Shown here one piece after another: positions 49,648 to 56,928 of a DNA stretch of 64,000 bases; within the stretch, counting starts at the first letter, position 1, and every line of letters begins with the position of its first letter. A program made the position numbers and the translations under genes. This stretch comes from Candidatus Calditenuaceae archaeon HR02 (GTDB taxonomy: Archaea; Thermoproteota; Nitrososphaeria_A; Caldarchaeales; Calditenuaceae). The stretch is taken from positions 8,092-72,091 of the forward strand of contig BEHE01000010.1 of the NCBI GenBank assembly GCA_002898395.1, written 5' to 3'. The notes under the pieces were generated by a model. It saw only the letters and a list, made by a program, of their open reading frames with translations. It searched no databases and was not told the DNA's origin.

Positions 49648-51165
49648 CTAGATGTCGAAGTAGAGGTAGAATTCGTAGGGGTGTGGGCGTGCGGAGACCT
49701 GTGTGTGTTCTTTCAGACCGTTCTCTATTATTGTCTCTATGAGTTCGCTTGGGAATATGGGTTTTAGGAAGTCGTGGTCTGATTCAAGCTCTTCTATGGA
49801 CTCTCTGAGGCTTCCGGGGAGCTGCTTGATTCCAAGCTGCCTCCTCTTTTCAGGCGATAGCTTGTATATGTCCTCGTCGACTGGGTCTCCTATGTCGATC
49901 TTCTTCTTGATTCCGTCGAGTCCGGCAGCCATCATGGCTGCGAAGCAGAGGTATGGGTTGCATGATGGGTCTGGTGTCCTGAATTCGATTCTTTTCTTCG
50001 CGCTTGCGGCGCGGCCCCTGTGGTATACGGGTACTCTCACGTTTGCTGATCTGTTGCTTCTGCTCCAGGCTATGAAGACTGGGGCCTCGTATCCGGGTAC
50101 GAGTCTCCTGTAGCTGTTGGTTGTGGGTGCTACTATTGCGCAGAGGGCTCTGCTGTGCTCTAGTAATCCTCCTCCGAAGTATCTGCCGAGCTGGCTTAGC
50201 TCAGCGTAGTCATCATTCTCGTCGTAGAACAGGTTTTCATGACCATCTAGCTGTAGGATGGTGTGGCCGGGGTTTGACTTGGTCTTTCCGCTTCTCTGCC
50301 ATAGGCTGACGTGGGTGTGCATGCCTGATGCGTTGTCGCCAAAGATTGGTTTTGGCATAAATGTGGCGATCATTCCGCTCTTGGCTGCTAGGTTTTTGAC
50401 AACGAATTTGTATGTTATGGAGTTGTCTGCCATATTTGTGAGGGTGTCCCTGTACATGTCTATCTCACACTGCCCCGCTGTAGCTACTTCGTGGTGGTGG
50501 GCGTCGCAAGGTATGTGGAAATGATCCGAAAGTATATTGACGCACTCGGACCTGAAGACCATTAACGTGTCGTGGGGTGGAGCGGGGTAGTAGCCCTCCT
50601 TAAACCTGATGGGATAGTTGGTTCCTGCGCTACTCCAGGCCGCCTCCTTCGACTCAATGCTATAAGACTGTCCCCTGTAGGCGTCTAGGACGTCCCAGTG
50701 GACTTTGTCGAAGACGAAAAACTCGATCTCGGGCCCCCAGAAGGAGAGGTCATATCCCTGCTCAGCCGCATACATCTCCGCCTTCTGAGCAACATGGCGT
50801 GGGTCCTTCTCCAGCCTTCCACGCGCCATTCCCCAGCCGACATTGCATATCATCCTCGCGGTCTTCACATGGTCAGGTATCCATGGGATGATGGCATAGG
50901 TTGAGGGGTCTGGATATAGCACTAGGTCGGACTCGTGTATGTCTACGAATCCCCTGATAGATGAGCCGTCAAGCTTTGGGACGCCTGAGGAGAATGAATC
51001 CTCGTCAAGGAATTTGGCTGGAATCGTTACGTGCTGGAGCCTGCCCGGAACATCCGTGAACTGGAGGTCAATGTATTTTATGCCATCCCTTTCAACGCTC
51101 TCCAACACTTGGTCAAGGCCCATCCTCCACGGTACGAGTTCGCCGTTCTCAAAGACAAATGGCAT
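49648..51165 (-). CDS. glnA: glutamine synthetase
   Basis: 505 aa. GS signature region (DGSS...; ...MHTHVSLW...) and overall GS fold. Confidence 0.75.
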   Translation of the reverse strand: MPFVFENGELVPWRMGLDQVLESVERDGIKYIDLQFTDVPGRLQHVTIPAKFLDEDSFSSGVPKLDGSSIRGFVDIHESDLVLYPDPSTYAIIPWIPDHVKTARMICNVGWGMARGRLEKDPRHVAQKAEMYAAEQGYDLSFWGPEIEFFVFDKVHWDVLDAYRGQSYSIESKEAAWSSAGTNYPIRFKEGYYPAPPHDTLMVFRSECVNILSDHFHIPCDAHHHEVATAGQCEIDMYRDTLTNMADNSITYKFVVKNLAAKSGMIATFMPKPIFGDNASGMHTHVSLWQRSGKTKSNPGHTILQLDGHENLFYDENDDYAELSQLGRYFGGGLLEHSRALCAIVAPTTNSYRRLVPGYEAPVFIAWSRSNRSANVRVPVYHRGRAASAKKRIEFRTPDPSCNPYLCFAAMMAAGLDGIKKKIDIGDPVDEDIYKLSPEKRRQLGIKQLPGSLRESIEELESDHDFLKPIFPSELIETIIENGLKEHTQVSARPHPYEFYLYFDI

Positions 51166-51519: not shown

Positions 51520-53817
51520 GTGCAGTCAGCGGTCTATGTCGGTAAGCCTATTCCGCGGAAGGAGGATCTGAGGTTTTTAACAGGTAGGGGCAGGTTCATA
51601 GATGATATAAGTCTCCCGAGGATGCTCTATGCGGCCTTTCTTAGGAGCCCTTACGCCCACGCGAGGATAACTAGTATCGATGTATCTGGCGCACTTCAAA
51701 ACGGCGCGGTGGCCGCCTTCACCGGCCAAGAGCTTAACAAGATGTGTGGTGGCATACATCTAGATGTACCGCGGGGGCGGAAGGATTTTGTGGTTAAGCC
51801 TCTCGCAGAGGGCAAGGTTAGGTATGTTGGCGAGCCTGTCGCTGTTGTAGTTGCTAACGACCCCTACACCGCGCGGGACGCTCTGGAGTACATTAACGTG
51901 GATTACGAGAGGCTTGAGCCGGTTGTGGATCCTCTTGAGGCTTCTAAGCCCGGTGCGCCTATCATACACGATGATTTCCCGGACAATATCTGCTTTACTA
52001 GGAAGCGTGTCTATGGCGATATCGAGGCGGCCTTCAGGGAGGCCGACAAGGTCGTTGATGTCCAGTTGAGGATACAGCGGCTTGTCCCCTCTGCGATGGA
52101 GTGTCGTGGTGTGGTGGCCATTTTTGACGAGGGTGTCGGATACCTGAGGATCTGGGCCACTAAACAATTCCCGCACGACTTTCGAGGCTGGACGGCAGAG
52201 GCCCTCGGAATATCTGAGTCGAAGATTCATGTTATAGCGCCAGACATAGGCGGGGCATTTGGCTCGAAACTCGAGCACTACCCTGAAGATGTAGTGATTC
52301 CCCTCTTAGCTAAATTGCTTGGACGGCCTATAAAGTGGATTGAGACGCGTAGTGAGAACTTCCACTCCACAACTCATGGAAGGGGTAGTGCGGCTTGGGT
52401 TGAGGCGGCCGTGAAGAATGACGGCAGGCTACTCGGGGTTAGAGCTAAGATCTTGACAGATCTCGGCGCCTATCCATACTTCTCCACGATACAGGTTCCC
52501 GAGGGGATTGTCGGGATGTTGCCGGGTTGCTATAAGCTGAGAGGCTTGGAGGCTGAGGTAACTGGCGTCTTCACCAATAAAGTTCCAACGGCGGCGTATA
52601 GGGGTGCGGGCAGGCCAGAGGCCTCATACATTATTGAGCGGACTATGGATAGAATTGCGAGAGAGCTGGGAATCGACCCAGCCGAGGCTCGGAGAAGAAA
52701 TTTCATCAGGCCAGAGGAGTTCCCCTACGAGACAATAACCGGCCACAAGTATGACTCTGGGAACTATGAACAAGCGCTTAACAAGGCGCTCAAGATTGTG
52801 GGCTATGAGGAGCTCAGGCATAGACAGTCAGAGCTAAGGGCTGCTGGGAAGCTGCTGGGCATAGGAATCTCAAGCTACATCGAGGTATGTAACTTTGCCC
52901 CTACCCCCGCTATAGTGAGTGTGGAGAAGGATGGGAGGGTCAAGGTGGTATCTGGAACGCTGCCGCACGGTCAGGGCGAGGAGACTGCATTCGCCCAGAT
53001 AGCTGCTGACGCGTTGGGTGTGGATATAAAAGATGTCGACGTCATATTTGGAGATACTTCTCTAATCGGGTGGGGGCCGGGGACAGCGGGTAGCTGGACA
53101 CTAGCGTCCGGCGGTAATGCGGTCCTACAAGCTTCTATGAAGGTGAGAGACAAGATATTGAGACTTGCAGCCCACATGCTGGAGGTTAGGCCCGAGGACT
53201 TGGAGATCGTTGACGGCAAGGTTGGAGTGAAAGGCGTCCCAGAGAAGTCCGTGAAGATTAAGGAGGTCGCTGCCCTAGCGTATGACCCTTCAGGACTGCC
53301 TGCCGGTATTGAGCCTGGACTCTCTGCAGAGGTGGGCTACAGTCCACAGCTGACGTATCCATTTGGGACGCATGTGGCCGTAGTCGAGATTGATTTGGAG
53401 ACGGGAAGGGTAGAGGTGAAGAGGCTAGTGCTTGTCGATGACTGTGGAAGGGTTGTTAACCCGCTTCTAGTTGAGGGGCAGGTAATTGGCGGGGCGGTCC
53501 AGGCCCTAGCTCAAGCCCTCTACGAAGAGGCTTTCTTTGATAGTGATGGAAACCTAGTCAACTCCAACTTTGGGGACTATCTTATTCCTACTGCCGTCGA
53601 GATACCTGAAATCCAGACGGAGAGGACCGAGACGCCTGCCCCTAACCCGCTGGGGGCAAAAGGTGTCGGGGAGGCTGCGACAATAGGCTTGACACAGGCC
53701 GTGGTAAATGCTGTTGAGGATGCACTCGCACCGCTCGGTGTAAGGGTAGTGGATACGCCGCTAACACCCTACCAGGTTTGGCGCATAATACGGGAAAAAC
53801 TCCCGAAATCGGGTTGA
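51520..53817 (+). CDS. molybdopterin-dependent hydroxylase large subunit (CoxL/XdhA/aldehyde oxidoreductase family)
   Basis: 765 aa. N-terminal GRGRFIDDI, a mid-region active-site loop (GAFGSK), and C-terminal dimerisation motifs of the xanthine-dehydrogenase family. No adjacent small or medium subunit genes. Confidence 0.7.
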   Translation: MQSAVYVGKPIPRKEDLRFLTGRGRFIDDISLPRMLYAAFLRSPYAHARITSIDVSGALQNGAVAAFTGQELNKMCGGIHLDVPRGRKDFVVKPLAEGKVRYVGEPVAVVVANDPYTARDALEYINVDYERLEPVVDPLEASKPGAPIIHDDFPDNICFTRKRVYGDIEAAFREADKVVDVQLRIQRLVPSAMECRGVVAIFDEGVGYLRIWATKQFPHDFRGWTAEALGISESKIHVIAPDIGGAFGSKLEHYPEDVVIPLLAKLLGRPIKWIETRSENFHSTTHGRGSAAWVEAAVKNDGRLLGVRAKILTDLGAYPYFSTIQVPEGIVGMLPGCYKLRGLEAEVTGVFTNKVPTAAYRGAGRPEASYIIERTMDRIARELGIDPAEARRRNFIRPEEFPYETITGHKYDSGNYEQALNKALKIVGYEELRHRQSELRAAGKLLGIGISSYIEVCNFAPTPAIVSVEKDGRVKVVSGTLPHGQGEETAFAQIAADALGVDIKDVDVIFGDTSLIGWGPGTAGSWTLASGGNAVLQASMKVRDKILRLAAHMLEVRPEDLEIVDGKVGVKGVPEKSVKIKEVAALAYDPSGLPAGIEPGLSAEVGYSPQLTYPFGTHVAVVEIDLETGRVEVKRLVLVDDCGRVVNPLLVEGQVIGGAVQALAQALYEEAFFDSDGNLVNSNFGDYLIPTAVEIPEIQTERTETPAPNPLGAKGVGEAATIGLTQAVVNAVEDALAPLGVRVVDTPLTPYQVWRIIREKLPKSG

Positions 53818-53865
53818 AGTAATACTTTCGTATTATTCTAAATAAGTTGATGCAAATGTTTATAT

Positions 53866-53873
53866 AGGGGACC
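53866..53873 (+). promoter_or_regulatory. TATA box (TTTATATA) for the downstream ncRNA
   Basis: Perfect archaeal TATA about 20-25 nt upstream of the first G of the GC-rich structured element. Confidence 0.45.
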
Positions 53874-53885
53874 ATAATTTCTTAT

Positions 53886-54075
53886 GGAGCGGGGCGCCCG
53901 GGATAGGGGAGATCCGAGAGGCGTCAGGGAAACCTGGCGTCTCTGGGAGCCTCCAGTCTCGTGGACCCAACGGGAAACCGTGGGCAAAGGGATTGGAGAG
54001 GGTGCTCACGGTGTGCGTGGGGCCTAGGGGTCTAACACGCACGTCGCGCGCCCTCCCCGAAAGGCGCCCCGTCTA
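53886..54075 (+). ncRNA. structured GC-rich ncRNA (about 190 nt; class unassigned; candidate minimal RNase P RNA or other stable RNA)
   Basis: Terminal helix GGGGCGCC/GGCGCCCC. Two GAAA (GNRA) hairpins with 12-bp and 7-bp stems. A third 8-bp hairpin (UGUGCGUG/CACGCACG) whose loop GGGUC can pair with GACCC in the junction, a possible pseudoknot. The segment has sharply higher GC than the flanks, no protein-like ORF, and its own TATA box. Confidence 0.5.
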
Positions 54076-54077
54076 AT

Positions 54078-54776
54078 TTACGGAGCAAACATGTGTCTGA
54101 GGACCCTCTCATAATACTGTTCCGGGGAATATTCTATCATCTCCAGGTCGTCGATGTTGAGGACGATTATGGAGTGTATTCTGCAGTTGCGTAGCTCGTC
54201 TATCTGGATGGGAGGCCTGCTGTAGTAGATGTCGCAGAGGCTCTTCAGCGACTCCACTTCTCCAGCCTCTCTAAGCCTTGGCGGCTTCAACAAGGGTTCC
54301 GGGATCTCCAGAATGTTGTAGCGGGGGGTTGCTAGGCTGAACTTGTCAGCATACTTACTGTATCGCGCAACCTTACTAACCACTCGGGCCCGGAGATACC
54401 TCTGAGGGTCGAGGGCGGCTTCAGGCGGGGCGAAACCGGTTTCTATCTCAATGATGTGGGTGCTTCCTCCCTTCTCGCCAAAGACGTCACAGACGAGTGA
54501 ATCGCCGAGATACCTTTCCACATCAACCTCATACCCAAGCCTCGCCAAGTGCCCCGCGCAGATAACCTCCATCACCGAATGATTAATCTTAACTAGTCCT
54601 CTCTGATGCATGTCGATGAGCTTCGCTCCAATCCTGTAGAGCTGATCTCTGAGAGACTGGCCTAGCAACCCTGCTAGCCTCTCTACCAACGCGGTGATGT
54701 CTCTAGCAAAATCGCTTTCACTCGGTCTATCAGCGTGCTTGGCTACTTCCCGCTCACTCGGCTGGTCGCTGCTCAC
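54078..54776 (-). CDS. hypothetical protein (possible PD-(D/E)xK-like nuclease fold)
   Basis: 232 aa. An acidic N-terminus, then ...GYEVDVERYLGDSLVCDVF...HIIEIETG, resembling a D...D/E-x-K nuclease core. No confident family. Confidence 0.35.
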   Translation of the reverse strand: MSSDQPSEREVAKHADRPSESDFARDITALVERLAGLLGQSLRDQLYRIGAKLIDMHQRGLVKINHSVMEVICAGHLARLGYEVDVERYLGDSLVCDVFGEKGGSTHIIEIETGFAPPEAALDPQRYLRARVVSKVARYSKYADKFSLATPRYNILEIPEPLLKPPRLREAGEVESLKSLCDIYYSRPPIQIDELRNCRIHSIIVLNIDDLEMIEYSPEQYYERVLRHMFAP

Positions 54777-54893: not shown

Positions 54894-55664
54894 TCACTCC
54901 AGCCTCGGTGCTATGAGGTATTCGAGCCTGCCTGCGGGGAGTGTGAAGGTCAGCTTTACGGGCTTGTTGCTGCTCAACTGTATAAGCGTCTCCTCGGACA
55001 GATCCCTACCAGGCTTAACTATCCGCTCCAGGTAGGCTAGACTAAAACTTGCTACAACCTCGTGGGGAGCCTCCACCTCGTATACTAGCGCGCCGTCCCT
55101 TGAGAGCTTGTTCTCGACCACGCCCATGTCGCCCTTAGCCATCAGTATCACAGCGGAGGGCTGGATGATTATCTTAACGGAGTCGGAGACTAGGCTTGCA
55201 TCCTCCACGGCCTCCCATAGCGCCTCCGAGTTTACCCTTGCCCTCGCCTCGAAGACTAGCTTGGGAGAGGCACTGGTGCCCGCGACGGGTTCGAGCGTGT
55301 TGAGCTGGTATCTCCTCTCCCGCGACTTGGTCGGGTCTGTCAGGATTATATCCAGCTTCCTCTTCTCCTCTTCGTATACGAGTGTCAGGGACTCACCCTT
55401 CTTAGCCCTCTTGAGGAATTTGAGTAGCTCCTGAAGGTTGACTGTCAGCTCTGTCTCCTTGTCTGCCACGAACTCCTCGGCGGCCTCCTTCCTCAGCTCA
55501 AAGTCTACAAGACTCACGTGAGCTGGATCCATAGACACGAGCCTCAACGAGTCTTGAGTAATCTTGAATGAGGCCTCATCAACTACAGCGGCAACTGCCT
55601 TAAAGAGGTCTGCGGCATAATCTGCGTTAGGGATCCTCATAGTAAACATGGTGCTCCCTCCCAC
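54894..55664 (-). CDS. pcn: DNA polymerase sliding clamp PCNA
   Basis: about 250 aa. N-terminus FKAVAAVVDEASFKITQDSLRLVSMDPAHVSLVDFEL is typical of archaeal PCNA. The real start is probably MFTMRI a few codons in. Confidence 0.75.
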   Translation of the reverse strand: MGGSTMFTMRIPNADYAADLFKAVAAVVDEASFKITQDSLRLVSMDPAHVSLVDFELRKEAAEEFVADKETELTVNLQELLKFLKRAKKGESLTLVYEEEKRKLDIILTDPTKSRERRYQLNTLEPVAGTSASPKLVFEARARVNSEALWEAVEDASLVSDSVKIIIQPSAVILMAKGDMGVVENKLSRDGALVYEVEAPHEVVASFSLAYLERIVKPGRDLSEETLIQLSSNKPVKLTFTLPAGRLEYLIAPRLE

Positions 55665-56130: not shown

Positions 56131-56928
56131 GTGCCGATCTTCAGTCCTGTTAAAGAGTCAGACATTACGAGAGCCATAGCCTCATCCTTCATAGAGATGT
56201 TCAGCGAGTATGCGCGGAGCGACGTGATCGTGGTGGGTGCAGGCCCTGCGGGCCTAATGGCGGCTAGGGAGCTGGCGAGAAGTGGAGTACGCGTCCTAGT
56301 GATTGAGCAGAACAACTACCTCGGTGGGGGGTTCTGGATTGGAGGATATCTGATGAACCCTGTAACCTTCAGGGCTCCGGCCCAAGAGATACTCGACGAG
56401 CTCGAAGTTCCGTATAAGAAGTATGTCGAGGGGCTTTACGTGGCTCACGGACCGCATGCATGCTCTAAACTCATAGCCTCAGCCTGCGACGCCGGCGTCA
56501 AATTCCTCAACCTGACAAAGCTCGACGACGTTGTTGTTAGGGATAATGCTGTGAGGGGTGTTGTGGTTAACTGGACCCCAGTCGAGGGTCTTCCAAGACA
56601 GATCACTTGTGTCGACCCGATAGCCTTGGAGGCCAGCCTTGTGATCGACGCCTCCGGGCATGACGCTGCTGCGGTGAAAAAGCTTGAGGCGCGAGGCCTT
56701 GTTAAGATTAGGGGGATGGGGGCGATGTGGGTGGAGAGGTCTGAGGACGCCGTGGTCGAGTATACCGGCGTTGTCTACCCGGGGCTGATAGTCGCTGGAA
56801 TGGCCGTGGTGGAGACCTATGGTCTACCTAGGATGGGGCCGACCTTCGGGGCGATGCTGCTGTCTGGCAGGAGGGCGGCTGAGATAGCCCTAGAAGAGCT
56901 CAAGAGGCTGGAGGCCGAGACCGTCTAG
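56131..56928 (+). CDS. thi4: thiazole synthase Thi4 (ribulose-1,5-bisphosphate-isomerase-like flavoprotein)
   Basis: [19 protein letters not shown] motif. 265-aa length and overall Thi4 family pattern. Confidence 0.75.

Follow-up and report, generated by a model that had tools for sequence, protein, structure and literature searches.

A predicted pseudoknotted RNA encoded beside a gene for a nuclease-like protein in Caldarchaeales and other Thermoproteota

Introduction

To our knowledge, very few large structured RNAs are known from archaea beyond rRNA, tRNA, RNase P RNA and signal recognition particle (SRP) RNA. Here we describe a predicted structured RNA of about 180 nucleotides (nt) encoded in a 64,000-nt stretch of DNA (hereafter the window) from Candidatus Calditenuaceae archaeon HR02 (contig BEHE01000010.1, positions 8,092 to 72,091), whose genome assembly (G000) comprises 1.73 Mb in 36 contigs and is 94% complete. 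The RNA gene abuts, in convergent orientation, an open reading frame (ORF) of 232 amino acids (aa) for a protein with a predicted PD-(D/E)XK nuclease-like fold. A preliminary description of the window, made from the letters alone, had proposed a structured RNA gene at this position and had missed its linkage to the 232-aa ORF, which is the most informative feature of the locus.

Results

A separate RNA gene between two protein-coding genes

The RNA gene lies inside a spacer of 260 nt between the gene for a CoxL-like molybdopterin oxidoreductase and the 232-aa ORF (Table 1). The central 180 nt of this spacer have a G+C content of 62-65% (67% for the predicted mature RNA), compared to 40-55% in the adjoining flanks; the preliminary description had placed the segment far above its surroundings, and while the rise is clear (62-65% versus 40-55%), it is not extreme. 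The TATA box noted earlier (TTTATATA, 53859-53866) is present 24-25 nt 5' of the first G of the closing helix (53891), and its sequence is unchanged in an alignment of all seven genus-level homologues. Similarly, a TATA-like hexamer is found 26-35 nt 5' of the RNA start in 31 of 36 family members drawn from three lineages, and in relatives the 3' end of the RNA is followed, no more than 10 nt away, by a run of four to eight Ts.

The only ORFs overlapping the segment are antisense (53642-53875, 77 aa; 53860-54042, 60 aa), and no reading frame is conserved across homologues, the longest open frame switching strand and frame from one genome to the next, which agrees with the earlier statement that the segment holds no credible ORF. 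The element is present in a single copy both in the 64-kb window and in the genome. On these sequence features we conclude that the segment is a separate gene, with its own promoter, for a predicted structured RNA.

A four-way junction with covarying helices

Folding of the + strand yielded a minimum free energy (MFE) of -122.3 kcal/mol, versus -85.1 ± 4.7 kcal/mol for dinucleotide shuffles (z = -7.98; none of 200 shuffles as good), and the same shuffle test on the opposite strand gave z = -4.1. The MFE fold holds the closing helix, a 12-bp hairpin capped by GAAA, a small GAAA hairpin and a third hairpin. All four had been named in the preliminary description, including the two G-U pairs of the 12-bp stem, and each of them covaries or carries compensatory changes in relatives. 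The paired ends, GGGGCGCC with GGCGCCCC, constitute the closing helix P1; a purine-rich asymmetric internal loop joins P1 to a short helix P2, which opens into a four-way junction with hairpins A, B and C (Table 1). From the earlier proposal of a pseudoknotted three-way junction the pseudoknot was thus retained, whereas the junction proved to be four-way (P1/P2 plus three hairpins).

The preliminary description had suggested covariation in relatives as a check, and the helices do covary at every depth that was compared. Of the 67 pairs that RNAalifold returned for a trimmed alignment of the genus copies, 13 show compensatory double changes. Across 24 copies from the order Caldarchaeales, 22 of the 30 pairs in the structure change on both sides, a score reached by none of 500 shuffles, and 83% of the alignment cells can pair, compared to ~40% when the partners are slid. 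In 12 copies from genera g9, g13 and g15, 36 of 62 pairs (pseudoknot included) are compensatory and 92.7% of cells are paired. Moreover, RNAfold independently predicted the same four-way architecture in 24 Caldarchaeales, Nitrosocaldus-type and Bathyarchaeia copies. For the distant copies, sequences were aligned by MAFFT and the structure was voted from single-sequence folds; a realignment based on the genus-level covariance model R1 was discarded, as antisense and partial matches had contaminated it.

At the level of individual helices, seven of nine P1 pairs change on both sides across the 24 Caldarchaeales sequences (92.6% of cells paired), as do nine of ten apical pairs of hairpin A in the same set, across genera. 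Compensatory changes in g9, g13 and g15 affect 11 of 13 pairs of hairpin B (helix 5) and 9 of 16 pairs of hairpin C (helices 8 and 9). The internal loop between P1 and P2 is conserved in sequence: columns G11, G12, A14, A16 and G17 of alignment A5 are nearly invariant, the motif recurs in the Nitrosocaldus-type and Bathyarchaeia copies, and the family consensus is 5' CGGRARAG / 3' GAAA.

Hairpin C has a further feature in the g15 and g13 copies, namely a symmetric 3x3 internal loop, GAA/GUA, with conserved flanking pairs (alignment A8, columns 154-156/200-202), which resembles the sarcin-ricin/loop-E (bulged-G) motif. At the equivalent place, A-rich loops (GAAAA/GAAAG) occur in copies of the Nitrosocaldus type and from Bathyarchaeia, with a conserved GCCAC after them. 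The loop may be a protein-binding site.

A pseudoknot between hairpins B and C

The GGGUC/GACCC contact anticipated in the preliminary description extends to a predicted helix of 7 bp between the internal loop of hairpin B and the loop of hairpin C, and it covaries in other genera. The equivalent loops there read CAUGAAC/GUUCAUG, CGUGAGC/GCUCACG, CGUGGGC/GCUCACG, UGCGGGC/GCCCGUG, UCACGAC/GUCGUGG and CCGCAAC/GUUGUGG, and four of the seven pairs of this helix (helix 6) are compensatory in the 12 copies from g9, g13 and g15. Likewise, the Nitrosocaldus-type pseudoknot GGGGG/CCCCC becomes GGAGG/CCUCC in one locus (L073) and GGGG/CCCC in another genome. Single-sequence shuffles for complementarity between B and C were not significant, the unconstrained search being noisy in sequence of such high G+C content, and the assignment of the pseudoknot therefore rests on covariation at equivalent positions. 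It was not established for the copies from g6, g4 or Bathyarchaeia. Where present, a pseudoknot of 5-7 bp would hold the two hairpins next to each other in a locked, compact fold.

The RNA matches no family in Rfam

None of the 4227 models of Rfam 15 reached its gathering score anywhere in the 64-kb window. When the segment (53750-54200) was scanned permissively, only chance matches to miRNA and leader families came up (at most 24 bits), and ten relatives of the RNA from four lineages gave no Rfam match at E <= 0.1. ARAGORN detected neither a tRNA or tmRNA gene nor a tRNA-like domain in the window (1-64000), and literature searches yielded nothing relevant on such an RNA in Thaumarchaeota, Aigarchaeota or Bathyarchaeota. 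Conservation of this family, which Rfam lacks, extends over at least three lineages of Thermoproteota. An undescribed class, which the preliminary description had left as one option, is thus the best fit for the window copy and its relatives.

Type T RNase P RNA (RF02357), the candidate named in the preliminary description, was not borne out: on 53750-54200 its model gave no match at E <= 10, and genome-wide its top two matches, at other loci, score 11.6 and 11.3 bits, far short of the 60-bit cut-off. A canonical archaeal RNase P RNA (RNaseP_arch) is encoded elsewhere in the genome, at C7:17698-17996 (-), with 156.8 bits (cut-off 84). The model for archaeal SRP RNA (RF01857), a family that had already been doubted, gave no match at the segment, the genome's own copy lying at C3:90751-91064 (+) with 120.1 bits. 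Because the segment matches neither family and canonical copies of both occur elsewhere in the genome, we exclude both candidates. These two copies (L010 and L011) also serve as positive controls and indicate that the organism has the standard set.

Distribution of the RNA family

BLASTN found the element, with 75-94% identity, in six of the seven further genomes that belong to the genus; in the seventh (G007) the contig ends inside the PCNA gene, so that the locus is unassembled and the apparent absence reflects an assembly break. We then relied on three covariance models, built on the genus copies (R1), more broadly (R2) and family-wide (R3), which score the window copy at 206.6, 132.9 and 86.6 bits, respectively. 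Inspection of the DNA past the stop codon of the protein gene in 30 genomes revealed a G+C-rich element of ~205-220 nt, again convergent, in five more genera. The ends of these copies differ and yet are complementary, and they share the motifs ...CCGGAAAAGGAG on the 5' side and CUCCGAAAG... on the 3' side.

With R2, the RNA was detected in 40 of 76 genomes of the order Caldarchaeales ("Aigarchaeota"), where it is vertically inherited in families f1 and f3; the genus of the window groups with Ca. Calditenuaceae genomes, and f3 includes Ca. Terraquivivens and Ca. Geocrenenecus. The family also occurs in Nitrosocaldus-type Nitrososphaeria and in a subset of Bathyarchaeia, and R3 recovered it in 11 genomes of a 151-genome sample of the phylum. 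Among loci of the protein gene R3 found one further copy only (L090), and strict and relaxed descriptors of sequence and helices revealed no further RNA beside the protein gene in 57 loci, mostly from Bathyarchaeia. Most of these 57 loci have less than 150 nt free downstream of the protein gene.

In a genome from another family (G041), R1 matched an RNA that is convergent with an abutting ORF of 224 aa, 61% identical to the 232-aa ORF. This genome, a 'Ca. Caldarchaeum sp.', is the only member of family f4 with the RNA-protein module (loci L019 and L027), whose RNA has loops of the g1 type; the module resides on a contig (C46) of 3.1 kb. Since the contig is short and the assembly consists of ~350 contigs, either horizontal transfer or a mis-binned contig accounts for it.

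Three weak matches lie near the partner gene or a true copy. A full-length R1 match of 19.5 bits, ~450 nt from the true copy on G067 contig C23 (L044:612-802 (-)), may be another G+C-rich structured region or chance. Two others come from unclassified Thermoproteota genomes, one of 23.9 bits ~0.8 kb downstream of the partner gene (L125:2932-3102 (-)) and one of 30.6 bits ~1.3 kb upstream of it and cut by the end of the locus (L090:1-192 (-)); these are possible divergent copies near the partner gene but not abutting it.

The adjacent gene encodes a protein with a predicted PD-(D/E)XK fold

The 232-aa protein matched no family in Pfam, NCBIfam, PADLOC or the sequences of the PDB, and its one match among PHROGs was weak (E = 0.31) and to a group without assigned function; neither viral relatives nor longer fused forms were found. 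Its AlphaFold model (pLDDT 89.2, pTM 0.84) has best Foldseek matches that are nearly all PD-(D/E)XK proteins, including CdiA-CT tRNase, XisH, SfsA, NucS/EndoMS, restriction enzymes and Can2. An exhaustive structure search with VIA-align placed residues ~63-218 closest to XisH (2okf, Z 9.2), 3dnx (Z 9.2) and AF1548 (1y88, Z 8.6). The predicted structure therefore has a restriction-endonuclease-like alpha/beta core.

Eighteen diverse homologues share invariant E70, E87, D97, E110, E112, R131, K135 and R138, together with ETGF and ALDP motifs. D97, E110 and E112 are on consecutive strands of the model and K135 is on the next helix, the third position of the signature being E rather than K; D97...E110-x-E112 with K135 may represent a variant nuclease active site.

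XisH, MmcB-like and AF1548-type proteins share with the partner protein an alpha-beta-beta-beta-alpha-beta core over ~100-115 residues (Z 8.6-9.2). They differ from it in sequence (12-17% identity, no profile match), and the partner protein has an extra N-terminal segment of three helices and a C-terminal subdomain. We know of no RNA partner for the XisH, MmcB-like and AF1548 families.

Identity between the proteins tracks taxonomy within the order. Outside the order, the protein is encoded at 507 or more loci in species-representative genomes, with hosts that include Nitrosocaldus, Nitrososphaerales, Nitrosopumilus, Bathyarchaeia, Brockarchaeota, Marsarchaeota, Methanomethylicia and Thermofilaceae, and at least 2485 relatives are found in databases, all of them labelled 'hypothetical'.

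The RNA and protein genes are linked

The protein gene was detected in 48 of the 76 genomes of the order, and cross-tabulation revealed that 39 genomes encode both RNA and protein, 27 neither, nine the protein alone and one the RNA alone. In the last case (G066) the contig stops where the protein gene is expected. Among the 27 genomes with neither gene are every member of genus g14 and 17 of the 18 from family f4 (Caldarchaeum and its relatives). In the phylum sample, all 11 genomes positive for the RNA have the protein, compared to 61 of 151 overall, and the distribution of the RNA is on these grounds nested in that of the protein.

Adjacency was observed in 23 of the best 80 loci. The genes are convergent in the Caldarchaeales loci and in three loci from Bathyarchaeia; in eleven Nitrosocaldus-type loci the two genes are instead in tandem, the protein gene first and the RNA gene after it with a TATA box of its own. 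The other flanking genes change from clade to clade, with PCNA in the window and, elsewhere, a P-type ATPase, HtrA, a THUMP methyltransferase, a B12-binding protein, MPG synthase with a JAB protein, an ABC ATPase or an SDR. One genome (G100) carries the RNA and protein genes on different contigs. Another (G063) has a second, decayed RNA copy (46-50 bits; C26:63613-63818, locus L165) beside a second copy of the protein gene (64040-64369, a fragment) that contains a TGA and a TAG stop codon; as the decayed copies adjoin, the pair was evidently duplicated as a unit.

The partner-gene loci of genus g5 (L162-L164, from G019, G025 and G022) are markedly AT-rich for the order, at only 23-24% G+C, and in these three genomes no G+C-rich island was found within 1.5 kb of the partner gene.

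Table 1. Positions in the window of the RNA gene, its predicted structural elements and the genes on either side
Feature	Position	Strand	Remarks
CoxL-like molybdopterin oxidoreductase	51520-53817	+	Pfam MoCoBD_1/2
TATA box TTTATATA	53859-53866	+	preceded by an A-rich stretch resembling a BRE
Predicted mature RNA, ~180 nt	53891-54070	+	ends inferred from promoter spacing and closing helix
P1 closing helix	GGGGCGCC 53891-53898 with GGCGCCCC 54063-54070	+	MFE fold, covariation
Internal loop, 5' side CGGGAUA	53899-53905	+	CGGAAAA in most relatives
P2 GGGGAG/CUCCCC	53906-53911 with 54053-54058	+	91% of cells paired; two pairs compensatory
Hairpin A	53913-53948	+	12-bp stem 53917-28/53933-44 with two G-U pairs; GAAA loop 53929-32
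Hairpin B	53951-53998	+	internal loops; GAAA-capped tip 53971-80
Pseudoknot, 7 bp	UGGACCC 53962-53968 (internal loop of B) with GGGUCUA 54028-54034 (loop of C)	+	
Hairpin C, UGUGCGUG/CACGCACG	54001-54052	+	apical loop holds the pseudoknot partner
Internal loop, 3' side GAAA	54059-54062	+	CCGAA nearly invariant across the family
T-run (TTT), likely archaeal terminator	54077-54079	+	overlaps the stop codon of the convergent gene
Partner gene, 232 aa, PD-(D/E)XK nuclease-like fold (predicted)	54078-54776	-	abuts the RNA gene convergently

Discussion

On balance, and with moderate confidence, we favour the interpretation that the element represents a new family of trans-acting structured RNAs that would work with the nuclease-like protein, likely as a ribonucleoprotein. 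That RNA and protein act together is suggested by an adjacency that has been kept through a change of orientation and through the turnover of all other neighbours. In such a partnership the RNA could be a scaffold, a specificity factor or a regulator of the nuclease-like protein, or else its dedicated substrate, and the likeliest sites of contact with protein, or of tertiary contacts, would be the internal loop, which is conserved, and those loops of hairpin C that are rich in A. A bolder version, which we hold to be possible though doubtful, is that the RNA is the obligate RNA subunit of a hitherto unknown archaeal PD-(D/E)XK ribonucleoprotein. This would be a nuclease dependent on RNA, or directed by it, that arose in cells and not in mobile elements, which would be ancestral to much of Thermoproteota and whose RNA would have diverged past recognition in the lineages that now appear to have the protein only.

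Several observations weigh against the favoured interpretation. The protein is far commoner than the detectable RNA (61 of the 151 phylum genomes and at least 507 loci), and most of its loci in Bathyarchaeia leave no room for an adjacent RNA. Within the order, Calditenuis g2 (six genomes) and g5 (three genomes) have the protein without the RNA: a search near the protein gene with filters off found none, a search by motif did not exceed its control and the loci bearing the motif lacked an R2 match. The protein, then, does not universally depend on the RNA, unless the latter has diverged past detection in these genomes. The E-x-E in place of (D/E)-x-K makes nuclease activity less than certain. 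Moreover, all genomes are metagenome-assembled, and joint absence of the two genes from incomplete assemblies is partly trivial since the genes adjoin; nor are related genomes independent observations.

Alternatively, the RNA could be an autonomous housekeeping or regulatory RNA with a function unrelated to the protein, with adjacency an inherited synteny that perhaps reflects a shared terminator region. We regard this as rather unlikely, while taking it seriously: the protein occurs in many lineages without a detectable RNA, the two genes are unlinked in G100, and in the window the T-run overlaps the stop codon of the protein gene, an arrangement that might be enough on its own to protect the junction from disruption. 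Yet inherited synteny sits poorly with an adjacency that outlasts both the change of orientation and the full turnover of neighbours over class-level distances, with the duplication of the pair as a unit in G063 and with the presence of the protein in every RNA-positive genome of the phylum sample. The pairing of a nuclease-fold protein with a strongly promoted structured RNA also evokes a dedicated inhibitor or regulator of a potentially harmful nuclease rather than a working subunit, comparable to a type III toxin-antitoxin system or to an RNA 'immunity' factor, and the patchy occurrence within the order (the module is missing from 17 of 18 f4 genomes and from g14) and the probable transfer or mis-binned contig in G041 would fit such a role. 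We nevertheless judge it improbable. Type III antitoxin RNAs are repeats located upstream of the toxin, whereas Tandem Repeats Finder detected no tandem repeats in 53700-54300 and the RNA is downstream of the protein gene or convergent with it; the pair is single-copy and largely vertically inherited, the protein has no relatives in PADLOC, among PHROGs or in viruses, and a toxin should not be tolerated in the many genomes that have the protein without the RNA.

The remaining explanations deny the RNA either a role in trans or its novelty. A four-way junction with a loop-loop pseudoknot is typical of large riboswitch aptamers, and the Nitrosocaldus-type copies follow the protein gene in the same orientation; a cis-regulatory element of a neighbouring gene (riboswitch, leader or 3' structure) is nonetheless very improbable, given that the copies of the window, of Caldarchaeales and of Bathyarchaeia are convergent with the only adjacent gene and run into a T-run with no gene downstream, that a separate TATA box precedes the RNA even where the two genes are in tandem and that no Rfam riboswitch matches it. 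We attach next to no weight to a minimal type T RNase P RNA or a truncated SRP RNA, despite the general likeness to small catalytic RNAs in size (~180 nt), pseudoknot and G+C-rich helices capped by GNRA loops, since in addition to the database results given above the pseudoknot joins the internal loop of one hairpin to the loop of another and does not have the topology of P4. Equally negligible is the notion that the segment is no RNA gene at all and represents a chance G+C-rich inverted repeat or a small protein-coding gene: although it is overlapped by two antisense ORFs (60 and 77 aa), no frame is conserved, the helices carry compensatory substitutions with G-U pairs that are strand-specific, and three archaeal lineages have kept the element together with a promoter whose spacing is fixed.

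Type T RNase P RNA of Thermoproteaceae is, like the window RNA, archaeal, ~200 nt long and G+C-rich, with a closing helix, several hairpins, a long-range pseudoknot and its own promoter, but it differs in the topology of its pseudoknot and in its conserved single-stranded nucleotides, and the window RNA is linked to a PD-(D/E)XK gene rather than to genes for RNase P proteins. In working terms only, a parallel is offered by the bacterial Y RNAs (YrlA) encoded next to rsr, the Ro60 orthologue: there too, the gene for a structured noncoding RNA with no known catalytic role is kept beside a protein gene, in that case for the protein which the RNA binds, and the distribution of the RNA is nested in that of the protein. 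The two RNAs are unrelated in sequence and structure, the partner of YrlA is a Ro/TROVE ring rather than a nuclease-fold protein, binding is only inferred for the window RNA, and neither ARAGORN nor Rfam detected in it a tRNA-like domain. The orphan RNAs HEARO (omega RNA, with IscB), raiA, OLE and ROOL were also found by G+C content and covariation, are multi-helix and pseudoknotted and had their function suggested mainly by a conserved adjacent protein gene. Unlike the window RNA, they are bacterial or associated with mobile elements, and all are in Rfam; the archaeal RNA is single-copy, has no association with transposons or phages and contains no obvious variable guide segment.

An RNA of ~200 nt with a four-way junction and a covarying pseudoknot, shared by Caldarchaeales, ammonia oxidisers of the Nitrosocaldus type and some Bathyarchaeia, and thus by archaea of hot springs and sediments, would join a short archaeal list. 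Its linkage provides a lead to the function of an unnamed PD-(D/E)XK family with at least 2485 'hypothetical' members and poses a question that can be tested, namely whether RNA and protein form a complex and, if so, what it cuts or binds. As hosts such as Nitrosocaldus and Wolframiiraptor are amenable to culture or enrichment, this question is within reach of ordinary RNA sequencing, pull-downs and in vitro assays.

Neighbouring genes

In the window, the PCNA gene (54894-55664 (-)) immediately precedes the partner gene, which has the same orientation and is separated from it by 117 nt. PCNA adjacency is seen in the genus of the window only and is probably uninformative on function. Genes for a Thi4 thiazole synthase (56131-56928 (+)) and a glutamine synthetase (49648-51165 (-)) lie nearby.

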